From positions 1 to 31,366 of the forward strand of contig JAWCKV010000006.1 in NCBI GenBank assembly GCA_038851565.1: 31,366 bases of DNA. The letters run 5' to 3'. Positions 38-28,576 of this stretch are shown here, in pieces. The notes beneath the pieces are model-generated. The model had not been told where the DNA came from. It saw only the letters and a program-made list of their open reading frames with translations, and did not search any database. Each line of letters starts with the position of its first letter. Within the stretch, counting starts at the first letter, position 1. Source of the DNA: Candidatus Hadarchaeales archaeon (GTDB taxonomy: Archaea; Hadarchaeota; Hadarchaeia; Hadarchaeales; Hadarchaeaceae). Position numbers and translations under genes: made by a program.

Positions 38-835
38 TTGCGTAGAGCACTGGACGGCATCTTGGGGATCATGCTCGATCTCGATGGAGTTGTGTGGGTG
101 GGGAAAACTCCGGTGGAAGGGGCTCCGGAGGCCGTGAGTAGGTTGAGGGAAATGGGAAAGAAAATAGTTTTCACAACTAACAACTCCGCGAGGAGCAGGA
201 AAGAATGCATTCGCATGTTGGGGAAGATCGGGATAAGGGCGAGGGAGGAGGAAATAGTCACTTCGGGATACGCAACCGCCGTTTATCTTAGCCGTTTGCG
301 CAGGGAGGTTAGGGCGTACGTCATAGGTGAAAGGGGATTGAAGAGAGAGCTAGTGCAGGTTGGCATAAAAGTTCTTTCCGATGAGAATGCCGGAAATGCG
401 ACCCACCTCATCGTCGGTAAGGACAGCACGATAAATTACAGGAGGATATGGGCGGGATTGAGGGCCCTCATGGGTGGGGCCGAGTTCGTGGCTACCAACA
501 CGGATCCGACGTATCCCACAGAACTGGGCCTTGCGCCCGGAGCCGGAGCGATGTTAGGCGCAATAACCGGATGTTCCGGGAGGACTCCGGATCTGATAAT
601 CGGAAAGCCCTATCTCCCCATGCTTAAGATCGGGCTCGAGATCATGGGCACAACGTCCCGTGAGACAGCCATAATTGGGGACAGGCCAGAAATAGACGTG
701 ATGGCCGGAAAGCTGGCTGGCATGAGGACGATCTTGGTTCTGAGCGGGGTGACCAAGAAAAATGACCTGAAGAGGATGAGGGGGGATATGCGACCCGATT
801 ACGTTTTCGAGAGCCTGATGGAGGTGGTATCTTGA
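38..835 (+). CDS. HAD-superfamily subfamily IIA hydrolase (NagD-like phosphatase)
   Basis: Motif I DLDGV, TNN, GKP and GDRPEID motifs. Stop overlaps the DP2 start (TTGA). Start codon uncertain. Confidence 0.9.
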   Translation: MRRALDGILGIMLDLDGVVWVGKTPVEGAPEAVSRLREMGKKIVFTTNNSARSRKECIRMLGKIGIRAREEEIVTSGYATAVYLSRLRREVRAYVIGERGLKRELVQVGIKVLSDENAGNATHLIVGKDSTINYRRIWAGLRALMGGAEFVATNTDPTYPTELGLAPGAGAMLGAITGCSGRTPDLIIGKPYLPMLKIGLEIMGTTSRETAIIGDRPEIDVMAGKLAGMRTILVLSGVTKKNDLKRMRGDMRPDYVFESLMEVVS

Positions 836-3800
836 GCCGTGCGAATGAAGAGATGAAGGATTACTTCAAGGCCATAGATGAGCATATAGAGAGGATATAC
901 GAGGTTGCGAGAAGGGCGAGGGCGCTCGGGATGGATCCGGAATTTGAGCCGGAGATACCGCGCGCTGGTGACCTGGCCTCAAGGGTGGAGCAGCTTGTGG
1001 GCCCAAAGGGGGTTGCGGATGTCATACGCGAGATGGAGAAGATCATGGACAGGGAAGAGCTGGCCCTCAAGGTTGCCGAGATGGTGATAGATGGAAGATT
1101 TGGCAGGTTGGACGAGGAAAAGGCGGCGGAGCAGGCCCTGAGGACCGCGCTCGCCATCCTGACTGAGGGAATAGTTATCGCTCCTCTTGAGGGGATAACA
1201 AGGGTGGAGATAAGGAGGAACCCTGACAACACGAGATACCTCTCTATATGGTTCGCCAGCCCGATCAGGGCGGCGGGCGGAACAGCAGCCGCGCTCTCCG
1301 TGCTTGCGGGTGACTTCGTGAGGAGGAAGCTCTTTCTGAGCCACTACAAGCCCACCCCGGAGGAGGTGGAGAGGTTCGTGGAGGAGGTTGAGATATACGG
1401 CAGCGTTGTTGCGCACGAGCAGTACAAGCCCCCGGCCGATCACATAAGGCTCGCCATCCAGAACATCCCGGTTGAGATAACAGGGGAGCCAACTGAGAGG
1501 GACGTCACGGTGACGGCCTTCAGGGACATCGAGCGCATAGGGCACAACATGGTCAGGGGAGGGGCAGTTCTCGCGTTGACGGAAGGCGTCCTCCAGAAGG
1601 CTTCAAAGATAATGAAGTACGTGGAGAAGCTCGGGATAGATGGCTGGGGATGGCTCTCCAGCGTTGTTCCTAAGGTTTCAGCCGAAGAGTCCGAGGCTCC
1701 TGTTTTTCCAAAGGGAGACAGGTATCTCAGCGAGGTGATAGCAGGGAGGCCGATATTCTCCCACCCAGGAACCGAGGGGCAGATGGGGAGAAGGGGTGGA
1801 TTCAGGCTCAGGTACGGGCGAGCCAGGAACACCGGAATTGCTGCGATAGGAATTCACCCTGCCACGATGGTCATATGTGACGACTTCATCGCAGTGGGGA
1901 CCCAGCTGAAGGTGGAGCGCCCGGGCAAGGGAGGGGCAGCAGTTCCGGTCGACTCAATAGAGGGGCCTGTGGTCAAGCTCGCGGATGGCTCCGTAATACA
2001 GCTCTCCTCAGCTGAAGAGGCGTTGAGGGTTAGGGATAAAGTGGTTGAGATACTATGCCTCGGAGACATGCTCGTCGGTTACGGGGAATTTCTTGAGAAT
2101 AACCATCCGCTGATGCCCGCAGGATACTGCGAGGAATTATGGAGTCAGGAGGTTGAAAGGGCGCTGGCCGGAAAAAATTTGGGGGAAATAGCTAAACATC
2201 TCCGGGGGCCCTACCCCAGGCCAGATCCCGTGCTTGCGGTCAGGATCTCGGATGAGCTTAAGGTGCCCCTTCACCCCGCATACACTTACCCGTATCATGA
2301 CCTTGAGATAGAGGAACTGGTTGAGCTGGCAAGATGGCTTGTCAGGGGAAAAGCGGAGTTCGACGGTGAGGTGATCAGGAGCCTCAGAGTTCCGGTGGAG
2401 GAAATCCCGAAGAGAATTCTGGAGGAGCTCTGCGTTCCGCACAGGGTGGAGGGCGGTGAGGCGGTCATAGAGGAGCACGCCTATCCTCTCTGCAGATCCC
2501 TTGGGCTCATATCTAATGGATCGCTCTCCCTAGAGAGATTTGAGCGGGTGATGCAGGCGAGCGCATCAAAGGACATAATGGACATCATGCGCGAGCTTGC
2601 AAGATTCCCGATCAGGAAAAAGGCTCCAACCAGAATCGGCGCGAGGATGGGAAGGCCGGAGAAGGCTAAGGAGAGGGAGATGAGTCCGCCCGTTCATGCC
2701 CTTTTTCCGGTCGGGTTTAAGGGAGGGGCAACGCGGAGCATACCAAAGGCGGCGCAGCAGGACTTCATTGAGGTTGAGCTGGCCAACATGGTTTGTCCGA
2801 GCTGCGGATGGTCCGGGTTCACAAGAAGATGTAAAAAATGCGGGGCAAAGGCAGAGCCGGTGAGGCTTTGCCAGAAATGCGGGCGTCCGGTTGAGGATGA
2901 AAGGTGTCCGGTTTGTAATGCCAGGGCGGAGTTCTTCTCTAAGAGACGGATAGACCTGAGGGCGATGTTTGAGGAGGCGCTGGAAAAAATTGGGGAGAGG
3001 TACCCTGATCTCGTTAAGGGAGTCCAGGGGATGACCAGCGATTGGAAGATCCCGGAGCCGCTGGAGAAGGGCATCCTGCGCGCAAAGCACGGAGTTCAGG
3101 TCTTCAAGGATGGCACGGTCCGATTTGATGCGACGAACGTCCCGCTTACCCATTTCAAGCCGAGGGAGATCGGAGTCTCGGTGGAAAAGCTTGTGGAGCT
3201 TGGGTACACTGTTGACATAGATGGAAACCCCCTAGAGCGCGATGACCAGATAGTTGAGCTCAAGGTTCAGGATGTCATCATATCGAAATCGTGCGCTGAG
3301 TACCTCCTTGCGGCATCGAGGTTCGTTGACGAGCTGCTCGAAAAGGTATACGGGCTGGAGCCATATTACATGGCGAAGGACACGAGGGACCTGATAGGGC
3401 ACATAGTTCTCGGTCTGGCTCCCCACACGTCGGTCGGGATAGCCGGGCGCATAATTGGTTTCGTCGATGCCAGCGTTTGCTACGCGCATCCGTTTTTCCA
3501 TGCGGCTAAGAGGAGGGACTGTTTTTCCTATGATGAAACCCTGCCGATTTTCGATGGTTTTGGCTGGAAAATCGTGAAAATAGGCGAGTTCATCGAGGAC
3601 TTATTTAAGAAACATAGGCCGCGAAAAACGGAATTCGGCGATCTGGTGGTTGAGATAGATAAATATCAGACGCTCACATTGACCGATGATCTTAAGTATG
3701 AGCTACGGCCGATTGTTGCTTTCTCGAAACATCCAGAACAGAATCATCTGGTCAAAGTCATCACAAAAGACGGCAGGGAGTTGGTCACGAGCGGCCTGCA

Positions 3801-5682
3801 TCCGTTTTTGGATGAGAATCAACAGAAGGTGCGAGCGTTTGAGGTAAGACAGGTAGTTCGTCCCATGAGGTTCAGCATCAAGGAAAAGGAGGTCAGGGAG
3901 CTGGATTTGTTGGATTATGCGGACGATGAGACAATGGTGGTTGGTGTAAAGGACCGGCTTAAAGAATATTTGGACGCCCACGGACTAAAACAAACGGCGG
4001 AGAAAATTGGTCTGCCCAAAACCACTTTATTTGACTATTACATGAGGGACTCCGTGCCAGCGAGAGTTTTGGTGAGCTTGGGGATACAGATACCGGCTGA
4101 TGCGAGGCTCAAGGCCCGGCACGATACGGTGATCCTGCCGAGGCTGATAAAAGTGGACAGGGACTTCCTGAGGCTCCTTGGGCTTTACGTTGCGGAGGGC
4201 CATCTCAGAAAAGAGGAGGGTTCCTTTTACCAGGTTTCCTTTGCAGTGACCCGAAACAAAAGGGAGGTCGAGCGGGCCATAGCTAAAGTGTTTGGCATAT
4301 CACCTTCAAGGAGCAAATACGCGGTCACCATTTCCTCGCGCCTTGTTTACAACTTATTCAAAGGTCTAGGCTGCGGGGAAAGGGCGGAGGAAAAGCGTGT
4401 CCCGAGTTTTGTGTTGTCGCTGCCCCTCGATCAGGTCAAGTACTTCTTACAGGGGTACTTCGAAGGGGACGGTGGTATAAGCAAACCTTGTGGAAAAGGG
4501 AGCACACCAGAAGTTTCATGCACTTCGGCAAGTAAGATGCTGTTGAGGGATATCGAATTTCTCCTTACCAGGTTTGGGCTCCCCTGTAGCTGGCAGAAGG
4601 ATCAAAGACGTATGGGCACAGGGAAGGTCGCGGATTTCTATAAAAAGAGGGGGCGCGTGCTTGAATGGACCTGTTACAAGTTGAGAATGTATGGCTCCAC
4701 AGCGCGGGAATTTTGTGAGAAGATAGGTTTTTGGTGGCCTGGAAAGCGCCGGAAGGCGGAGAGGATACTGAAAGGCCATAAGTTCAGATCTAAGAGGCTG
4801 GACCGGCGCGGGGATGCCGTCGTCAGCGCAGTGAAGGAAATAAGAATAGAACGTTCGCCTCAGCCGCTTTATAACTTCACGGTCAAGGAAACCCACAACG
4901 CAATCGTTTCTGGCTGTTCGGTGAAACAGTGCGATGGCGACGAAGACTGCGTAATGTTGCTGCTCGATGCCCTGCTGAACTTCAGCAAGCGCTTCCTGCC
5001 GTCAAAGCGCGGTGGGACAATGGATGCCCCCCTGATTCTCAACACCCGCATCAATCCCACCGAGATAGACAAGCAGGCCCACAACATGGACGTGATGAAA
5101 GCGTATCCGCTGGAGTTCTACGAGGCAACCCTCCGCTACGCAAGGCCGCAGGAGGTCCTGGAATTGATGACAACCGCGGGCAGGAAAATAGGGACCGAGA
5201 ACGAGTACAGTGGGTTTGGGTTTTCCAGTGAAACCACCGATATCTCGGCGGGCCCGAAATCCACCAGGTATGCCACACTTGCCACGATGGAGGAAAAGAT
5301 ATCCGCCCAGTTGACTCTGGCGCGAAAGATCCGTGCCGTGGACGAGAGGGATGTGGCAGAGCGCCTCATCAAACACCACTTCATACCGGATCTCAAGGGC
5401 AACCTGAGGACCTTTGCCACGCAGAAGTTCAGGTGCACCTCCTGCAACCAGACCCACCGCAGGATACCTCTCTCGGGAAAGTGCACCAGATGCGGCGGAA
5501 AGCTGGTCCTCACCGTGACCAGGGGGGGCGTGGAGAAGTACCTGCGGGTGGCTATGGATGTCGCTGAGGAATATCACGTCAGCGAGTACACAAAGCAGAG
5601 GCTGGAGCTGACCAGGAAGGACATAGAGTCGATGTTTGAAAGCGATGCCTCAAAACAGTTGAGCCTGGCGGATTTCCTGTGA
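832..5682 (+). CDS. polC: DNA polymerase D large subunit DP2, intein-containing
   Basis: PIRAAGGT, GFRLRYGRARNTG, RMGRPEK, FKDGTVRFD, and catalytic HAAKRR.../CDGDED split by an intein. Zn fingers present. C-terminal PIP-box-like QLSLADFL. TTG start. Confidence 0.97.
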   Translation: MSRANEEMKDYFKAIDEHIERIYEVARRARALGMDPEFEPEIPRAGDLASRVEQLVGPKGVADVIREMEKIMDREELALKVAEMVIDGRFGRLDEEKAAEQALRTALAILTEGIVIAPLEGITRVEIRRNPDNTRYLSIWFASPIRAAGGTAAALSVLAGDFVRRKLFLSHYKPTPEEVERFVEEVEIYGSVVAHEQYKPPADHIRLAIQNIPVEITGEPTERDVTVTAFRDIERIGHNMVRGGAVLALTEGVLQKASKIMKYVEKLGIDGWGWLSSVVPKVSAEESEAPVFPKGDRYLSEVIAGRPIFSHPGTEGQMGRRGGFRLRYGRARNTGIAAIGIHPATMVICDDFIAVGTQLKVERPGKGGAAVPVDSIEGPVVKLADGSVIQLSSAEEALRVRDKVVEILCLGDMLVGYGEFLENNHPLMPAGYCEELWSQEVERALAGKNLGEIAKHLRGPYPRPDPVLAVRISDELKVPLHPAYTYPYHDLEIEELVELARWLVRGKAEFDGEVIRSLRVPVEEIPKRILEELCVPHRVEGGEAVIEEHAYPLCRSLGLISNGSLSLERFERVMQASASKDIMDIMRELARFPIRKKAPTRIGARMGRPEKAKEREMSPPVHALFPVGFKGGATRSIPKAAQQDFIEVELANMVCPSCGWSGFTRRCKKCGAKAEPVRLCQKCGRPVEDERCPVCNARAEFFSKRRIDLRAMFEEALEKIGERYPDLVKGVQGMTSDWKIPEPLEKGILRAKHGVQVFKDGTVRFDATNVPLTHFKPREIGVSVEKLVELGYTVDIDGNPLERDDQIVELKVQDVIISKSCAEYLLAASRFVDELLEKVYGLEPYYMAKDTRDLIGHIVLGLAPHTSVGIAGRIIGFVDASVCYAHPFFHAAKRRDCFSYDETLPIFDGFGWKIVKIGEFIEDLFKKHRPRKTEFGDLVVEIDKYQTLTLTDDLKYELRPIVAFSKHPEQNHLVKVITKDGRELVTSGLHPFLDENQQKVRAFEVRQVVRPMRFSIKEKEVRELDLLDYADDETMVVGVKDRLKEYLDAHGLKQTAEKIGLPKTTLFDYYMRDSVPARVLVSLGIQIPADARLKARHDTVILPRLIKVDRDFLRLLGLYVAEGHLRKEEGSFYQVSFAVTRNKREVERAIAKVFGISPSRSKYAVTISSRLVYNLFKGLGCGERAEEKRVPSFVLSLPLDQVKYFLQGYFEGDGGISKPCGKGSTPEVSCTSASKMLLRDIEFLLTRFGLPCSWQKDQRRMGTGKVADFYKKRGRVLEWTCYKLRMYGSTAREFCEKIGFWWPGKRRKAERILKGHKFRSKRLDRRGDAVVSAVKEIRIERSPQPLYNFTVKETHNAIVSGCSVKQCDGDEDCVMLLLDALLNFSKRFLPSKRGGTMDAPLILNTRINPTEIDKQAHNMDVMKAYPLEFYEATLRYARPQEVLELMTTAGRKIGTENEYSGFGFSSETTDISAGPKSTRYATLATMEEKISAQLTLARKIRAVDERDVAERLIKHHFIPDLKGNLRTFATQKFRCTSCNQTHRRIPLSGKCTRCGGKLVLTVTRGGVEKYLRVAMDVAEEYHVSEYTKQRLELTRKDIESMFESDASKQLSLADFL
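3520..4929 (+). mobile_element. Intein (470 aa) with LAGLIDADG homing endonuclease domain in DP2
   Basis: Inserted at KRRD|C...Q|CDGDED. Block A CFSYDETL, block B VTSGLHPF, endonuclease motifs LLGLYVAEG and FLQGYFEGDG, block F LYNFTVKETHN, C-terminus SVKQ followed by Cys+1. Confidence 0.95.
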
Positions 5683-5884: not shown

Positions 5885-6496
5885 ATGCGCTTCACGAAAT
5901 ACCTTGAAGATCTCTTGGGCACAAAATCAGACATTAAAATTCTTCGCACATTATGTGAATATCCTACCAAAGAGTTCAACGAGAGCGAGCTGGCGAGGGT
6001 ATCGAGAGTTGGGCAGAAGACCGTGAACCGCATGATGCCAAAATACGTTGGTTATGGTATCGTTAATGTCAGGACAATTGGGCGAGCGAATGTTTACAGT
6101 TTGAACTCCGAGCATTACATAGTCAAGCAGCTCATGCAGTTGTTTAAGGCAGAAAGTGTGGCCAGGTTGGAACTGGAACGTCGGCTCAGGGAAGCCTTCA
6201 AGGATGATGAGGATATCATATCGCTTGTGGTCTTTGGCAGTCTCGCGCGGGGAGAAGAGAAACCAACTTCTGATATCGATGTTTTCGTCGTTGCCGAAGA
6301 TAAAGAAGGGGTAAAAAATAGGCTACAGGCGGTGGAGGAAATCACGATGAAAGAGTTTGGCAATGTGATCTCGGAATACATCCTGACGCCTGAAGAGTTC
6401 AGACGAAAGCGGAAAGCCCAGGCCATTAAAGAGATCTTGGCCCATGGAGTGCTGATAGTTGGAAAACCTCTGGGGGAAAAAGATGCCGGCTATTAG
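5885..6496 (+). CDS. Winged-HTH + minimal nucleotidyltransferase (MNT) antitoxin-like protein
   Basis: N-terminal HTH/wing (FNESELARVSRVGQKTV...GIVNVRTIGRANVYSLN). C-terminal GS-x10-DxD motif FGSLARGEEKPTSDIDV. Confidence 0.88.
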   Translation: MRFTKYLEDLLGTKSDIKILRTLCEYPTKEFNESELARVSRVGQKTVNRMMPKYVGYGIVNVRTIGRANVYSLNSEHYIVKQLMQLFKAESVARLELERRLREAFKDDEDIISLVVFGSLARGEEKPTSDIDVFVVAEDKEGVKNRLQAVEEITMKEFGNVISEYILTPEEFRRKRKAQAIKEILAHGVLIVGKPLGEKDAGY

Positions 6497-6896
6497 GACA
6501 AAATCCGTTTTGAAAGACTCGTACAAAGTTTTTCTCCAAAAATCGGAGGAGTTTTTGGATGCCGCGAAGTATTCGCTTTCTAAAAACAGCTTCAATGCGG
6601 CCGCCGGATGCGCCGCCCACGCAGCGATAAGCGCCCTTGACTCCCTCGCAGCGTTTTACCTGCAGCGAAAGCATGCAGGGGAAAAACACGAAGATGCAGC
6701 CCACCTTTTCAAGGAGAGAGGAATAGCTGAGCTTGAAGGCAGGGAAAAGGCAGCCGGCCAGTTCAGGAACATCGTTAGAATCAAGGGGCTTGCGGAGTAT
6801 GAGCAAAGAGAGGTCTTTAAGGGGGAGGCAGAAGAGGCGGTGAAAGCTGCAGAACGGTTTCTTGGCTGGGTTAAGAAAAATATGCCGGGGCTCTGA
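6483..6896 (+). CDS. HEPN domain protein (MNT-HEPN pair)
   Basis: All-helical pattern FLQKSEEFLDAAK...AAHAAISALD...KH...LAEY...AEEAVKAAERFL. Overlaps the MNT stop. ATG at 6483 chosen over the ORF-track start at 6459. Confidence 0.85.
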   Translation: MPAIRTKSVLKDSYKVFLQKSEEFLDAAKYSLSKNSFNAAAGCAAHAAISALDSLAAFYLQRKHAGEKHEDAAHLFKERGIAELEGREKAAGQFRNIVRIKGLAEYEQREVFKGEAEEAVKAAERFLGWVKKNMPGL

Positions 6897-9856: not shown

Positions 9857-10762
9857 ATGAGGTGCCCCACCTGCGGGAGTTCCTCGGTCCTGCACGATCA
9901 GGTGAGGGGAGAAATAATATGCACGAGGTGTGGGCTCGTCATCCTGGAGCGCCTTCTCGATCCCGGACCCGAGTGGAGATTAAAAGAAACCGAGAGGTCA
10001 GGAAGGGCAGATGTTGGCTCTGGCTCCGATGTGACCCTCCATGACCTAGGTTTGGGAACAACATTCACTGTGCCGCTCGACGTGGCGCCGAGCATACGCG
10101 CTTCCCTCAGAAGGATGGAAAGGCTGCAGAAGCGTTCACGCGCCACAAGCTGGAGGGATAGAAGTCTCAGGGACGCGCTGGTGGACCTGGATAAAATTTG
10201 TGAGATGATGGGCGTCCCAAAGGGCGTGAAGACCGAGGCGAGCGTGCTTTACCGGAAGATCATGTCAAGGGGACTGACGGTTGGCAGGGACCACGTGCTT
10301 ACTCTCTCAGCAATTCTGTTTCTGGTGTTCAGGTCCAGAGGGATACCGAGAAGATGTGAGGAAATAGCGGATGTGGTTAAAAGGGGATTTGGAACGAAGC
10401 AGTCCTGGGGGAGCAGGTCCATAAGAAGGCTTGCAAATTTCCTGTCTAGGGAGCTCAACATAAGGCCGAGGATGATCGGAGCCGAGGAGCATCTTGACAG
10501 ATTTTCCTCCCAGCTCGGACTTACGCCTGATGTGATCACGCGAGCCAGAAATTTCCTGAGAGGAATGCCGGATCGCATGAGGATGGGAAAGTCTCCAGTC
10601 CTCCTCGCGGCGGTTTCGATCTATCTGGCGACCAGGGCATCGGACGAGAGGCTGACGCTCAGGAGGATAGCGGATGTCACGGGCGTGGGCGTTTCAACGA
10701 TCTCGAAGAATATCTCTTCCATGAGGTCGGGGGGAGAGGTATCACTATCTCTCCCTCCCTAG
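9857..10762 (+). CDS. tfb: Transcription initiation factor IIB (TFB) family protein, divergent paralog
   Basis: Zn ribbon CPTC...CTRCG, GPEWR, HDLGLGT, two cyclin-like repeats, C-terminal HTH LRRIADVTGVGVSTI. Confidence 0.88.
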   Translation: MRCPTCGSSSVLHDQVRGEIICTRCGLVILERLLDPGPEWRLKETERSGRADVGSGSDVTLHDLGLGTTFTVPLDVAPSIRASLRRMERLQKRSRATSWRDRSLRDALVDLDKICEMMGVPKGVKTEASVLYRKIMSRGLTVGRDHVLTLSAILFLVFRSRGIPRRCEEIADVVKRGFGTKQSWGSRSIRRLANFLSRELNIRPRMIGAEEHLDRFSSQLGLTPDVITRARNFLRGMPDRMRMGKSPVLLAAVSIYLATRASDERLTLRRIADVTGVGVSTISKNISSMRSGGEVSLSLPP

Positions 10763-20930: not shown

Positions 20931-21122
20931 ATGCCGATCGCGAGGAAGTGTTCTTTCTGCGGCGGGAGGATCGAGCCCGGGAGCGGGCTGATGTTCGTGC
21001 GCAGGGACGGATCGATAAACTATTTTTGCTCCTCGAAGTGCGAGAGGAACATGGGGCTCGGGAGAAAGCCTCACAGGGTGAGGTGGACCGAGAGATACAG
21101 GAGGATGAAGGGGAAGGAATGA
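20931..21122 (+). CDS. rpl24e: 50S ribosomal protein L24e
   Basis: CSFCG, IEPGSG, FCSSKC, WT. Confidence 0.96.
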   Translation: MPIARKCSFCGGRIEPGSGLMFVRRDGSINYFCSSKCERNMGLGRKPHRVRWTERYRRMKGKE

Positions 21123-21526
21123 GCGAGAGAACCCTGGTCGTGATAAAACCGGATGGCGTCAGAAAGGGGCTGGTGGACGAGATAAAGAGGAGAATAGAGG
21201 GAGCCGGCCTGAGGATAACTGCAGAGATGGTGACTAGGCTTTCCAGGGGGACCGCTGAGAAGCTCTACGAGCCCCATCGTGGCAGGGACTTCTTCGGTCC
21301 GCTAGTTGAGTTCATGATCTCTGGGGATGTTGTCGTGATGAGGGTGGAGGGAGATCGGGCTATATCCAGGATGAGGGAGATATCTGGGAATACGGATCCA
21401 AGGCTGGCCCCCGAGAACACCATACGGGGAAGATTTGGCACTACGGTCAGGGAGAATGTGATCCACTCCTCCGATTCGCCTGAGACAGCGGAAAGGGAGC
21501 TTGCTATATTTTTCCGCGGCAAATGA
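21119..21526 (+). CDS. ndk: Nucleoside diphosphate kinase
   Basis: MSERTLVVIKPDGV, TIRG, NVIHSSDS. True start is ATG 21119 (ATGA overlap with rpl24e), not 20801. Confidence 0.95.
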   Translation: MSERTLVVIKPDGVRKGLVDEIKRRIEGAGLRITAEMVTRLSRGTAEKLYEPHRGRDFFGPLVEFMISGDVVVMRVEGDRAISRMREISGNTDPRLAPENTIRGRFGTTVRENVIHSSDSPETAERELAIFFRGK

Positions 21527-21571: not shown

Positions 21572-21748
21572 ATGACCATATGTTCGGAATGCGGCAGGGA
21601 ATGTCCGGATGAAGAGATAGTGAAGTGCAGGGAGTGCGGGAGGCCATACTGTGCCGAGTGCGCTGAGGCAGAGGACTCGATGAGTGAGCTCGGGATCTGC
21701 CCAGATTGTGAGGAGACCTGGGAAGCAACGGATGAGGAAGAGGAATGA
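21572..21748 (+). CDS. 58-aa acidic Cys-rich zinc-finger protein (not in ORF track)
   Basis: MTICSECGRECPDEEIVKCRECGRPYCAECAEAEDSMSELGICPDCEETWEATDEEEE*. Four CxxC pairs, SD GGAGG upstream, hairpin downstream. Confidence 0.85.
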   Translation: MTICSECGRECPDEEIVKCRECGRPYCAECAEAEDSMSELGICPDCEETWEATDEEEE

Positions 21749-21768
21749 AAACAGGGTCCCCTGTTTTT
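21748..21768 (+). terminator. Inverted repeat with T-tract, putative terminator
   Basis: AAAACAGGG-TC-CCCTGTTTT(T) directly after the zinc-finger gene stop. Confidence 0.55.
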
Positions 21769-21825
21769 GTCCGGTGACCTCTCCCCCAAACCAGCTTAAC
21801 CACGTCCCTTAGTTATAGGACACTT

Positions 21826-23058
21826 ATGTTAGAGCTAGATGAGGGGTTCAATTTGGGCTTGCTTGATATATGGGGCATATGCAAGCAGATGAAAATCCCG
21901 TCACAGAGCGGCAATACGAGCTATGAGCCAATCTTAACTAAACATGGAGGGGAGATCGAAATATGGTATAAAACCGGTCCTGGACAGTTTATTTCTCATC
22001 CTTTTAGAGTACAAAGGTTCATTCCCCTACATAGGAAAACCTTTCAGGCTTTCGGGTTAATACAGGCTGAATCCACCAAAAAATTGAAGCACGTTTCTTT
22101 TGATTTCTCCAACATTATACCAGAAGTGGTTCGGTTTATTATGGATTATTTTGAGGAGATTTGGGGGATCAGTAGGAAAAATTGGAAAGTATATGTGGAG
22201 TACTGGAGAGGCAAACCCAGCGATTTCAAAAAGAAAGGGATAATCAGATTTTGGGCCCATCAACTCTCAGTCAGCGAGTGGCAAATTAAAGTTCGAGTTG
22301 GAAAGGAAACACGATTCAGCAGGCGAGCAGCCGTGTTTGGAACAGCGGCAATTCGTTTAAACAGCAGGATAGCCCAGACGCTGATAATGACGGTACTCGA
22401 CCGGATTAAAACCTTGGCAGAAAGCGATTCCCGAGCAGCTGGAGCGTATTTATGTGGGCTCTTGGCCGGGGACGGTGTCGTGCTAGAATACAAAGGCATA
22501 TTTACTGCGGTGGGACTCTCCTTTAACCCTCATTCGGATGAGCTTGAGCATTATACGAAGGTTCTTGCCACGGCAGGTGTTCATATTGAAAAAGAAAAGT
22601 TGGCCCGCAGTGGGGCAAAGGTAATGTACTTCACCCATTGGCGTGATTCCATCGCCCTATTGAAAGCGTCCGATGGGTACCTGTTTTTGCCCCACCGAAG
22701 GAACGCAGTTAGGTTTTACAAAGGTTTCCTGTATAACCAGTACATACGTCCACTCCTAAGGTTAAGAGTATTCAAAGAGCGTCAGTTGACAGCTAGAGAA
22801 TTTGCAAGACTTGTAGGTATTTGTAAACGGACGGCAAACCTTGGCTTAAACCGTTGCGTCAACCTTGGTTTTCTGGGAATTAACGGAAAAGGCACGACCT
22901 CCTCACCCTTCCGGTTTTATTTAACTGAGGGAGGAAGAATGTTTCTTGAGGTCGTGAATAAAATTGAGCGTTTGAGGTGTGAGCTAGATGGGAAGGCTTC
23001 GATGCCCGATTGTTGCAACGATGGGACAGGTGGATGCAGGGAAAACAACACTGCTTGA
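21826..23058 (+). CDS. Free-standing LAGLIDADG-like endonuclease with C-terminal winged HTH
   Basis: Motifs AFGLIQAES and YLCGLLAGDG. wHTH LTAREFARLVGICKRTANLGLNRCVNLGFL...FYLTEGG. Visibly more AT-rich than neighbours. No intein splicing motifs. Overlaps infB by 71 nt. Confidence 0.75.
   Translation: MLELDEGFNLGLLDIWGICKQMKIPSQSGNTSYEPILTKHGGEIEIWYKTGPGQFISHPFRVQRFIPLHRKTFQAFGLIQAESTKKLKHVSFDFSNIIPEVVRFIMDYFEEIWGISRKNWKVYVEYWRGKPSDFKKKGIIRFWAHQLSVSEWQIKVRVGKETRFSRRAAVFGTAAIRLNSRIAQTLIMTVLDRIKTLAESDSRAAGAYLCGLLAGDGVVLEYKGIFTAVGLSFNPHSDELEHYTKVLATAGVHIEKEKLARSGAKVMYFTHWRDSIALLKASDGYLFLPHRRNAVRFYKGFLYNQYIRPLLRLRVFKERQLTAREFARLVGICKRTANLGLNRCVNLGFLGINGKGTTSSPFRFYLTEGGRMFLEVVNKIERLRCELDGKASMPDCCNDGTGGCRENNTA
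21832..22990 (+). repeat. 10-bp direct repeat GAGCTAGATG bounding the endonuclease ORF
   Basis: Exact copies at 21832-21841 and 22981-22990. The second copy contains the infB ATG. Confidence 0.7.
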
Positions 23059-24775
23059 CACAATTAGGGGCACCACCGTTGCATTCAGGGAGCCCGGACA
23101 GATAACTCAGGCAATTGGGGCTTCAGAGGTCCCCGCCCAGGTGATCAAGAAGGTTTGCGGCAAGCTCATCGATACGTTCAAAATAAAGCTAACAATCCCA
23201 GGACTCCTTTTCATAGATACACCCGGCCACGAGGCATTCGCCAATCTCCGTCGTCGGGGAGGCGCTCTGGCAGACCTCGCCATCCTCGTCGTGGACATCA
23301 AAGAGGGTTTTATGCCTCAGACGCTAGAATCCCTCGAGATATTGAAAATATACAAGACACCGTTCATGCTCGCCGCCAACAAGATCGACCTCATCCCGGG
23401 CTGGCGATCAACTCCGAAATCGTGTTTCTTAGACTCCTTTACGAACCAATATCCCAAAGTTCAGCAGGCGCTTGACGGCAAAGTTTATGAGCTGGTAGGC
23501 AAGATGCACGAACTTGGCTTTGAATCAGAGCGCTTTGACAGGGTGAGCGACTTCCGGAGGCAGGTCTCGATTGTTCCTACAAGCGCCAAGACGGGGGAGG
23601 GAGTGCCCGAGGTGCTCGCGGTGCTCGCTGGACTCGCACAGCGCTTTCTTGAGAAAGAACTAACGGTAGAGGTGAAGGGTCCAGCGCGCGGGACGGTGCT
23701 GGAGGTAAAGGAGGAGGTTGGACTCGGCAAGACAATAGATGTCATTGTTTACGATGGCACGCTCGCGAAGGGGGATTTTTTCGCCGTCGGAGGTCTTGAC
23801 AAAGTTATAACCTCCAAGGTTCGTGCGCTACTTCAACCAAAGCCGCTTGACGAGATACGGGATCCGGAGGACCGATTCAATCCAGTCGAGAGAGTGTATG
23901 CGGCGGCAGGCGTCAAGGTGGTCGCTCCGGGTCTGGAGGGAGTGGTGGCTGGTGCCCCGCTGTTGGTTATTCGTGACATATCTGAGGCTGAGAAGCTGTG
24001 GCAGGAGATGCAGGATGAACTTGAACGGATCAGAATAAGCGCGGACATAAATGGAGTTGTGGTGAGGGCAGATGCCCTAGGCTCGCTGGAGGCCCTCGTG
24101 GGGCAGCTACAGGCGAGGGGCATACCCATCCGACGCGCCGATGTTGGGGATGTTTCAAGGCGCGATGTGGTCGAGGCAGTAACCGTTGCCAAAAGTGACC
24201 CATCGCTTGCAGTCGTGCTCGCATTCAGGGTGAAAATTCTGCCAGATGCACAAATGGAGGCCGAACGCGAGGGAATACCTATCCTGCATGAAGAAATAAT
24301 CTACCGGTTACTGGAGGGATACGAGAAATGGGCAAAGCAAAAGCGCGATGAACTGAGGGAAATGAAGCTAGCCGGGTATGTGAGGCCGGCCAAGATCCTG
24401 GTGAAGCCCGGATACATCTTCAGGAGGAGCGACCCGGCGATCGTCGGTGTGGACGTTTTGGGCGGCGTGCTCAGGCCAAAGGCCCCGTTGATGCGCTCCG
24501 ACGGCAAGCCGGTCGGGACGGTCAGGGAGATCCAGAGGGAAAAAAGGCCCGTGACAGAGGCCAGGATTGGCGAGGAGCTTGCGGTTTCAATAGATGGGCC
24601 CCTCGTCGGGAGGCATTTCGATGAGGGAGACGTGCTGTACACGGACATCCTCAGGGATCAGGTCCTCGCGCTCAGGAGGGATCTCAAGGACATGTTGAGT
24701 GGGGATGAGCTCTCGGTGCTCGATGAGATAGTATCGATAAAGCAGAGGCGGGATCCAACCTTCGGAGTGATGTAG
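22988..24775 (+). CDS. infB: Translation initiation factor aIF5B (IF-2)
   Basis: LRCPIV...GQVDAGKTT, PGLLFIDTPGHEAF, NKID, SAKTGEG, GSLEA, IFRRSDPAIVGV. SD GAGGTG at 22974-22979. Confidence 0.96.
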   Translation: MGRLRCPIVATMGQVDAGKTTLLDTIRGTTVAFREPGQITQAIGASEVPAQVIKKVCGKLIDTFKIKLTIPGLLFIDTPGHEAFANLRRRGGALADLAILVVDIKEGFMPQTLESLEILKIYKTPFMLAANKIDLIPGWRSTPKSCFLDSFTNQYPKVQQALDGKVYELVGKMHELGFESERFDRVSDFRRQVSIVPTSAKTGEGVPEVLAVLAGLAQRFLEKELTVEVKGPARGTVLEVKEEVGLGKTIDVIVYDGTLAKGDFFAVGGLDKVITSKVRALLQPKPLDEIRDPEDRFNPVERVYAAAGVKVVAPGLEGVVAGAPLLVIRDISEAEKLWQEMQDELERIRISADINGVVVRADALGSLEALVGQLQARGIPIRRADVGDVSRRDVVEAVTVAKSDPSLAVVLAFRVKILPDAQMEAEREGIPILHEEIIYRLLEGYEKWAKQKRDELREMKLAGYVRPAKILVKPGYIFRRSDPAIVGVDVLGGVLRPKAPLMRSDGKPVGTVREIQREKRPVTEARIGEELAVSIDGPLVGRHFDEGDVLYTDILRDQVLALRRDLKDMLSGDELSVLDEIVSIKQRRDPTFGVM

Positions 24776-27361: not shown

Positions 27362-28576
27362 ATGCCCCAGGCGTCTGTGAACATAGGCCTTGTGGGTCAC
27401 GTGGACCACGGGAAGACAACCCTCACAGAGGCCCTTTCTGGAGTATGGACGGATGTCCACAGCGAGGAGATACGCAGGGGGATCTCGATAAAGCTTGGGT
27501 ATGCAGACACGTCCTTCATGCAGTGCACACAGTGCGGCAGGTACAGCACAAAGAAAAAATGCCCGTACTGCGGGGAGAAAACGGAGTTCAGGCGCAGGGT
27601 CTCCTTCGTGGATTCACCTGGACACGAGATGCTGATGGCCACCATGCTCTCCGGTGCGGCGCTGATGGACGGGGCCCTTCTCGTGATCGCTGCTAACGAG
27701 CAGTGCCCCCAGCCACAGACCAAGGAGCACCTGATGGCTCTAGACATAGTTGGCGTGGGGAATCTTGTGGTCGTGCAGAACAAGATAGAGCTTGCTCCCA
27801 AGGAGAGGGTGCTGGAGAACTACAGGCAGATAAGGGAGTTCCTGTCGAATACTCCCTACAGGGACGCACCTATCATCCCAGTTTCCGCGATTCACAGGGC
27901 AAACCTGGACAGGCTCATAGAGGCGATAGAGAGACACATTCCGACCCCCAGACGAAATCCGGATGCCCCACCGCTGATGTACGTGGCGCGTTCGTTTGAT
28001 GTCAACCTCCCAGGAACTAGGCCCGAGGAGCTGAAGGGAGGGGTGGTGGGAGGCTCGCTGATGCGTGGAAAGCTATGCGTGGGCGATGAGATAGAGATAA
28101 GGCCCGGGCTCAGGACATCCCAGGAGGGAAGACAGGCGTGGAAGCCGCTGACGTCAAGGATAGTGGGCCTCAGGGCCATGGACAGCCAGCTCAGGGAGGC
28201 CTTTCCGGGAGGGCTGATAGGCGTCGGGACTGTGCTGGATCCTTTTTTCACCAAGGGGGACTCGCTTGTGGGGTCAGTGGTGGGTCACCCCGGTGAGCTT
28301 CCTGAGGTGAGGGATGCCCTTGAGATGGAGATACACCTCATGGAGCGGGTGGTGGGGATGGCAGAGGAGCTGGAGGTGAAGCCGCTTGCTATAGGGGAGC
28401 CACTTGTGGTGAACGTGGGAACCGCTACCACGGTTGGAACGGTGGCGACCGCAAGAAAGGAGCTTACGGTTCTTAGGCTGAAGCATCCAATATGCGCGGA
28501 GGGCGGCGCAAGGGCGGCCATCAGCAGGAGGGTCTCCGGAAGGTGGAGGCTGATCGGGTACGGCGTGATAAAGTGA
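27362..28576 (+). CDS. eif2g: Translation initiation factor aIF2 gamma subunit
   Basis: NIGLVGHVDHGKTT, RGISIKLGYA, Zn ribbon, DSPGHE, PQPQTKEH, RSFDVN, RWRLIGYG. Confidence 0.97.
   Translation: MPQASVNIGLVGHVDHGKTTLTEALSGVWTDVHSEEIRRGISIKLGYADTSFMQCTQCGRYSTKKKCPYCGEKTEFRRRVSFVDSPGHEMLMATMLSGAALMDGALLVIAANEQCPQPQTKEHLMALDIVGVGNLVVVQNKIELAPKERVLENYRQIREFLSNTPYRDAPIIPVSAIHRANLDRLIEAIERHIPTPRRNPDAPPLMYVARSFDVNLPGTRPEELKGGVVGGSLMRGKLCVGDEIEIRPGLRTSQEGRQAWKPLTSRIVGLRAMDSQLREAFPGGLIGVGTVLDPFFTKGDSLVGSVVGHPGELPEVRDALEMEIHLMERVVGMAEELEVKPLAIGEPLVVNVGTATTVGTVATARKELTVLRLKHPICAEGGARAAISRRVSGRWRLIGYGVIK

Follow-up and report, generated by a model that had tools for sequence, protein, structure and literature searches.

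The infB locus and its endonuclease gene

The window analysed here is a stretch of 31,366 nucleotides from a Candidatus Hadarchaeales archaeon (contig JAWCKV010000006.1, assembly GCA_038851565.1), in which an open reading frame (ORF) encoding 410 amino acids (aa) lies directly 5' of infB (aIF5B). Here, we report that this ORF is a free-standing LAGLIDADG endonuclease gene, best read as a homing endonuclease living on the 5' end of archaeal infB, and we relate it to its kin in two archaeal phyla. The genome of the window, which forms its contig C6, is designated G000 and a sister genome of the same genus G047. The gene order is rpl7ae, rps28, rpl24, ndk, a 58-aa Cys-rich gene, the endonuclease ORF and infB, and the features that matter to the argument are as follows.

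21119..21526, + strand: ndk, native host gene (Pfam NDK, 1e-46; G047 gives the best match, rank 1 of 20)
21572..21748, + strand: native 58-aa Cys-rich (zinc-finger-like) gene, the last host gene before the element (zinc-finger Pfam matches weak, below cut-off)
21749..21825, no strand: left junction region, DNA likeness to G047 fading just past the stop at 21748
21826..23058, + strand: free-standing two-motif LAGLIDADG endonuclease gene, 410 aa
22054..22074, + strand: LAGLIDADG motif 1 (GLIQAES; acid E82), E82 invariant in homologue comparisons
22456..22476, + strand: LAGLIDADG motif 2 (GLLAGDG; acid D216), D216 invariant in homologue comparisons
22723..22995, + strand: winged helix-turn-helix (wHTH) domain, residues about 300-390
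22974..22979, + strand: Shine-Dalgarno-like GAGGTG for infB, within the endonuclease ORF, 8 nt before the infB ATG
22988..24775, + strand: infB (aIF5B), 595 aa, without intron or intein (Pfam GTP_EFTU, IF-2; the sole infB match in G000)
22988..24340, + strand: putative co-imported (co-converted) 5' part of infB, with a break between codons 446 and 456 (24323-24355)
23024..23047, + strand: altered P-loop codons GQVDAGKT, the predicted immune form of the target site

The earlier note on this DNA, made from the letters alone, had described an AT-richer ORF that runs into infB and supplies its Shine-Dalgarno sequence, and this description holds. The ORF is real, with its own start and stop, and encodes a protein of pI 9.7; its G+C content of 45%, as compared with 57%, falls in the lowest 0.5% of the genome's 447 long frames, it overlaps infB by 71 nt in another frame, and the GAGGTG lies inside it. 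The protein is modelled as a two-motif LAGLIDADG domain with an N-terminal beta extension and a C-terminal wHTH, and the proposed LAGLIDADG fold with both acids and a wHTH is borne out by this fold and by E82 and D216. The position of E82 is acidic (D or E) in all 154 aligned rows (9 more are gapped) and that of D216 in 154 of 156 (7 more gapped), while K85 is kept in 114 of 163. In two pairs dN/dS is 0.17 and 0.11, and 149 of the 150 best representatives of the family measure at most 590 aa. The wHTH, at a guess, probably adds DNA contacts or autorepression.

Two memberships were tried and rejected. An intein-encoded endonuclease is at odds with the lack of any Hint or Intein_splicing match in Pfam, as the note had anticipated, and with an ORF that is out of frame with infB; for WhiA/DUF199, the catalytic acids are kept here and there is no single conserved copy across the lineage. 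In the features open to testing, the gene fits a free-standing monomeric LAGLIDADG endonuclease, and it belongs to neither of these groups.

Distribution of the family and empty sites

A patchy distribution at the ndk-infB junction had been named as support for mobility, and such a distribution was found. No close copy of the endonuclease is present in the 65 other genomes of the window's phylum, ten of which hold matches of 25-31% only, at other places, and infB itself is present in 64 of the 66 genomes (63 of 65 besides G000). G047 provides the empty site, with ndk, the Cys-rich gene and infB following one another and nothing between; its Cys-rich gene, immediately 5' of infB, is 70% identical to that of the window. 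This acidic 58-aa protein was seen, among the loci examined, only in the window and in G047.

Seven homologues of 38-63% identity were found in protein collections. A second phylum, of small-genome archaea and probably DPANN, holds a family member in 37 of 301 sampled genomes (E <= 1e-6), and 30 of its 47 family matches were inspected for neighbours. Three strong matches and one weak match from this phylum, plus three metagenome loci, lie directly 5' of infB. The other members of the window's own clade for which DNA context is available (L044, L045, L046, L047, L050 and L051) occupy this position in six of six cases, a count that excludes the closest homologues, P0002-P0007, which come without DNA context. 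That homologues might sit beside other conserved genes was also confirmed: the remaining members inspected in the second phylum abut tfb, gatD, proS, a DEAD-box helicase gene, top6A and the fibrillarin gene, and further neighbours are cbf5, rpsJ, a class I tRNA synthetase gene, rtcA and hypD. The names lhr, hef, elp3, trpS and EndoQ, used for some neighbours, are tentative labels based on Pfam domains or given where Pfam had no match.

In a tree of 53 proteins, a quick tree that contains long branches, members group by neighbour gene, with 7 changes for 7 labels as compared with a shuffled mean of 18.4 (0 of 200 shuffles). The infB group and the tfb group each cover both phyla, and two distinct clades of the family have settled at infB. 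The second of these, unrelated to the first, lies 5' of infB at L076:420-1757 and L141:80-1462. L076 has the same upstream infB stub and small antisense gene as L047 and L050 (see below), which suggests that one endonuclease replaced another.

The tfb-linked clade lies 3' of tfb in the window's phylum (L003-L008, L010, L012 and L013). An intein-sized frame within tfb was detected at 5 of 9 loci of this clade and at 6 of about 43 others (Fisher p 0.014, with insensitive detection and kin that are not independent). G047 carries two near-identical tfb genes (contigs C15 and C27), each followed by a different family member and one of them with an intein, which reflects either a duplication or a mixture in the bin. 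At L051:3127-4098 (G302) a reverse transcriptase gene is found upstream of the infB-linked endonuclease.

Probable entry into the 5' end of infB

A decayed infB N-terminus opens five of the homologues (P0002, P0005, P0007, P0009 and P0011), whose N-termini score 72-111 against infB starts from other genera of the window's family, the median being 31 (160 proteins). At L047, L050 and L076 an upstream infB stub breaks off at the first Gly-His/Gln in the P-loop; behind it come, in order, a small antisense ribbon-helix-helix (RHH) gene, the endonuclease gene and a new infB start that is complete. The C-terminal tails of P0016 and P0018 resemble an out-of-frame infB start with an insert (scores 46 and 69, median 33), which is suggestive. 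From the stubs of the old start that lie upstream in these relatives, the element seems to have entered the 5' end of infB and to have brought a replacement start. Unlike in the relatives, no old-infB-start stub was recognisable in the left junction of the window (21749..21825), where a hairpin at 21748-21767 is at chance level.

The RHH gene (Pfam RHH_1) lies on the minus strand at L047:249-389, and likewise in L050 and L076, and an HTH-like gene stands upstream in L051. These small antisense DNA-binding genes, divergent from the endonuclease, possibly encode its repressor.

GGTG-like words recur in the last codons or the stop of the endonuclease gene at L045, L047, L050 and L051. Among the loci, endonuclease and infB are separated by a 5-nt gap at one extreme and overlap by 71 nt, in the window, at the other, and the overlap is for this reason considered incidental. 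The proposal that the element is hard to delete, infB expression being dependent on it, is thereby weakened, and also by G244, in which only a decayed 3' tip of the endonuclease gene is left 5' of infB.

The altered P-loop and the mini-introns of relatives

Of 61 distinct uninterrupted infB alleles, 59 read GH[VI]DHGKT in the P-loop, one element-free allele reads GHVDSGKT and the window reads GQVDAGKT, being the only one with Gln at position 2. Both sites at which mini-introns are found in relatives fall in the same P-loop codons that are altered in the window, so that both intron sites and both His changes lie within 8 codons. Inteins, too, use the IF2 P-loop in some euryarchaeal IF2 genes.

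The mini-introns are inserts of 18-30 nt that lie in the codon for the first His or in that for Lys, found at six of the seven second-phylum loci that were identified via the endonuclease alone (L044, L046, L047, L050, L051 and L076; L045 is without). Collapsed to independent events, four of five carry the insert (binomial 0.007 at a generous 20% background). Among the matches listed from pattern and protein searches there are 44 distinct interrupted P-loops, 38 in infB and 6 in aIF2-gamma, with inserts of 18-34 nt. The inserts conform to a bulge-helix-bulge (BHB) structure, a 4-bp helix between two 3-nt bulges, and their removal restores the P-loop frame. A perfect 4-bp central helix occurs at the BHB position in 34 of the 44 (shuffled mean 1.4, maximum 7 in 1000), at least three of the four pairs form in all 44, and the paired bases co-vary. 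The tRNA splicing endonuclease is encoded in all five intron-bearing genomes tested.

In the second phylum at least 33 of 279 infB genes are interrupted, and in the phylum of the window at least 3 of 64 (those of G003, G008 and G011), lower bounds because the search patterns miss some cases. The endonuclease gene or a remnant of it lies upstream of 6 of the 33 intron-bearing infB genes in the second phylum, those of G264 and G244 having been found through the intron, and upstream of none of the 28 uninterrupted infB alleles inspected. The term 'intron-less', which the earlier note had applied to the element, stands for the window, where infB is free of introns and so offers no partner for collaborative homing such as is present at six of seven distant loci; it does not fully describe the family, since the majority of the distant relatives are paired with a BHB mini-intron.

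The infB P-loop mini-introns were seen at L021, L119 and L120 in the window's phylum and at L102-L118, L130-L146, L164-L169 and L187-L191 in the second phylum; in most of these cases an adjoining endonuclease is absent. The His-codon mini-intron occurs also in aIF2-gamma, near position 1500 of L129, L131, L139, L147, L148 and L149, and may perhaps have arrived there by transfer between similar P-loop sequences. Short inserts were further observed in rpsJ (L067:2735-2800) and cbf5 (L056:2680-2760), directly 3' of other family members; that in rpsJ is a clear BHB (z -5.1) and that in cbf5 is not (z -0.35).

Possible import of the 5' part of infB

G047 is the best match for the five flanking genes that have several homologues. 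Compared with the infB of the window it ranks 1 of 30 for codons 441-595 and 30 of 30 for codons 1-440. Triplet counts were 50:23:24 in control genes against 24:79:28 in the infB 5' part, and the break at codons 446-456 was equalled in 0, 0, 0 and 4 of 500 permutations with four comparators. Since the first and third triplet counts are nearly equal, a replacement in the lineage of the window fits better than one in that of G047. Rare shared residues number 4 versus 8 (p 0.004). Codons 1 to ~450 of infB (~1.3 kb) thus look imported.

A public hot-spring run (X1), which may be the source sample, holds a contig over 21720-24270 with 0 differences from the window, and its flanking contigs differ at 3/927, 3/770 and 13/1628 nt. 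Five further pieces within 21720-24270 (runs X2, X3 and X5) show 0 differences each, among the matches listed. Contigs break near 21720-21748 and 24270-24346, and a related X1 contig is 1097 nt shorter across the element site. Together these data hint at a recent sweep across the element and the infB 5' part.

Weighing the explanations

The account we consider likely is that of an enzyme that cuts element-free infB near the P-loop, after which the gene, the replacement start and a portion of the donor's infB are copied into the broken allele by repair, the resident being protected by a codon change or a mini-intron and the gene later decaying. The monomeric enzyme would cut in or near the GHVDHGKT codons, and repair off the donor chromosome would transfer the endonuclease gene and the new infB start, here together with ~1.3 kb of donor infB. 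The window allele would be immune through its changed P-loop codons, and those of the relatives through a P-loop split by an 18-34 nt BHB intron, a form of collaborative homing in which the tRNA splicing endonuclease would take the intron out of the mRNA. Decay of the endonuclease would then leave the intron behind.

Several observations weigh against this account. At L045 an intact-looking endonuclease adjoins an unaltered, intron-free GHVDHGKT, and three further genes of G000, among them aIF2-gamma at 27395, contain the same P-loop core, so that the cut site must include infB-specific flanks. Foldseek with the 410-aa protein returned nothing at E <= 0.001, and the closest homologues stand outside the count of infB-linked positions. 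No endonuclease was detectable upstream of 27 of the 33 intron-bearing infB alleles, a pattern compatible with decay and also with introns that arose independently. Concerning the import, an approximately unbiased (AU) test did not reject a vertical 5' tree (p 0.35), the infB 5' part of G047 is a long branch, and the flanking differences in X1 are clumped and may stem from other strains. The first two of these points are also what one would expect if an infB homing endonuclease cut at another point within the first 1.3 kb, such as the switch-I codons or a place further 3', and the P-loop changes and mini-introns merely hitchhiked. The reach of the imported tract to codon ~450 agrees with such a cut, and among free-standing phage enzymes the cut lies hundreds to thousands of bases away from the enzyme's own gene (PMC2988022). 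We nevertheless hold it unlikely, as the upstream stubs of relatives end in or just before the P-loop, the intron sites and His changes are confined to the same few codons, and short inserts close to the endonuclease are found also in rpsJ and cbf5, the neighbours of other family members.

It is improbable that the gene, once mobile, has become inactive and is passed on by ordinary recombination among strains that occur together, the odd P-loop being a product of drift. About nine in ten putative LAGLIDADG enzymes were decayed in a recent survey (PMC13619312), the stop codon of the window gene has slipped, and GHVDSGKT was found in an element-free allele; the frame is intact, however, both acids are kept, K85 persists in most rows of the alignment, and variation over the element is zero in four runs. 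The earlier note had raised the alternative of a domesticated WhiA-like regulator, which here would act on infB or on the ribosomal-protein operon. Both the catalytic residues and the distribution speak against it and leave it very little probability: WhiA is without the acidic residues and is a single-copy gene across Gram-positive bacteria (PMC3384342), whereas here both acids are kept, a close copy is missing from 65 of the 66 phylum genomes and a decayed remnant is seen in G244. Least probable of all is an RNA-acting, maturase-like partner of the mini-introns in place of a DNA endonuclease. The association with intron-bearing alleles and a LAGLIDADG maturase among the weaker fold matches of the protein speak for it, but the window and L045 are without an intron, the gene is missing beside most intron-bearing alleles, and a tRNA splicing endonuclease was found in every intron-bearing genome tested.

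Relation to known systems

The homing endonuclease favoured here resembles the free-standing endonucleases of phages (T4 seg/mob, F-CphI and T3/T7-like) in being a stand-alone gene beside a conserved essential gene, and intronless and collaborative homing in phages in the putative co-conversion of flanking host sequence and, as regards its relatives, in having as partner an intron that lacks an endonuclease and lies at the presumed cut site (PMC2988022, PMC10448857). It differs in residing on a cellular archaeal chromosome, in being of the LAGLIDADG type instead of GIY-YIG, HNH or EndoVII, and in duplicating and replacing the start of the gene; the partner in its relatives is a BHB intron of 18-34 nt, presumably spliced by an enzyme, and in phages a group I ribozyme. 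Free-standing homing endonuclease genes of fungal mitochondria (atp9, atp6 and cox1) share insertion at the gene end, a partial duplicate and a pseudogene stub (PMC7487136), whereas the present element lies on an archaeal chromosome, encodes a wHTH as well and has relatives linked with BHB mini-introns. In comparison with I-Tsp061I and I-DmoI (rRNA introns) and PI-PfuI (intein), the window gene lies outside any intron or intein, is 12-14% identical, and encodes an extra N-terminal beta region and the C-terminal wHTH. WhiA/DUF199 likewise has a LAGLIDADG domain followed by an HTH domain, but its catalytic acids are lost and it is vertically conserved (PMC3384342).

The inserts of relatives resemble the crenarchaeal cbf5 intron and the 5' UTR intron of HVO_1309, small BHB introns in mRNA that are removed by the splicing endonuclease (PMC7714728, PMC12397907). 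Unlike the cbf5 intron, they occur in infB, aIF2-gamma and rpsJ, in other phyla and beside an endonuclease gene, the infB of the window having none. As archaeal mRNA BHB introns, the accessible part of PMC7714728 names only cbf5 and HVO_1309, and that of PMC12397907 (2025) cites only three older pre-mRNA papers. The accessible parts of PMC13149111, PMC13619312 and bioRxiv 10.64898/2026.10.13.758758 contain nothing on an infB-linked element, and no description of one was found in a literature search that left subscription journals largely outside and did not cover supplements.

Other features of the window

The polC (DP2) gene at 832-5682 contains an intein with a LAGLIDADG domain (residues about 913-1360). 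Right after it, at 5885-6896, follow a low-GC nucleotidyltransferase gene (with HTH) and a HEPN gene, a pair resembling MNT-HEPN toxin-antitoxin systems. A divergent TFB paralogue at 9857-10762 has no match at E <= 1e-60 in the 65 other genomes of the phylum.

Implications

Taken more broadly, we lean slightly towards the view that the window belongs to a large archaeal family of free-standing LAGLIDADG-wHTH homing endonucleases, each clade attached to one essential gene, which enter and replace the gene start and act as mobility partners of largely unreported BHB mini-introns in infB, aIF2-gamma, rpsJ and cbf5. In this family the window would exemplify intron-free immunity, with two near-invariant P-loop His rewritten, and a recent sweep that imported three quarters of infB from another genus.

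Such a family would extend intronless and collaborative homing, described from phages and organelles, to the chromosomes of cellular archaea, and it implies that DNA is exchanged between genera and between phyla. As infB, tfb, rpsJ and proS serve as phylogenetic markers, their replacement driven by homing could distort archaeal trees, and gene callers truncate infB genes that are interrupted. Thermophilic monomeric LAGLIDADG enzymes with predictable targets are, moreover, candidate new meganucleases. The relatives that lie beside intron-bearing copies suggest a way for tRNA-type introns to spread into protein-coding genes, and thereby offer a route, open to test, by which mRNA introns could have arisen and spread in archaea.
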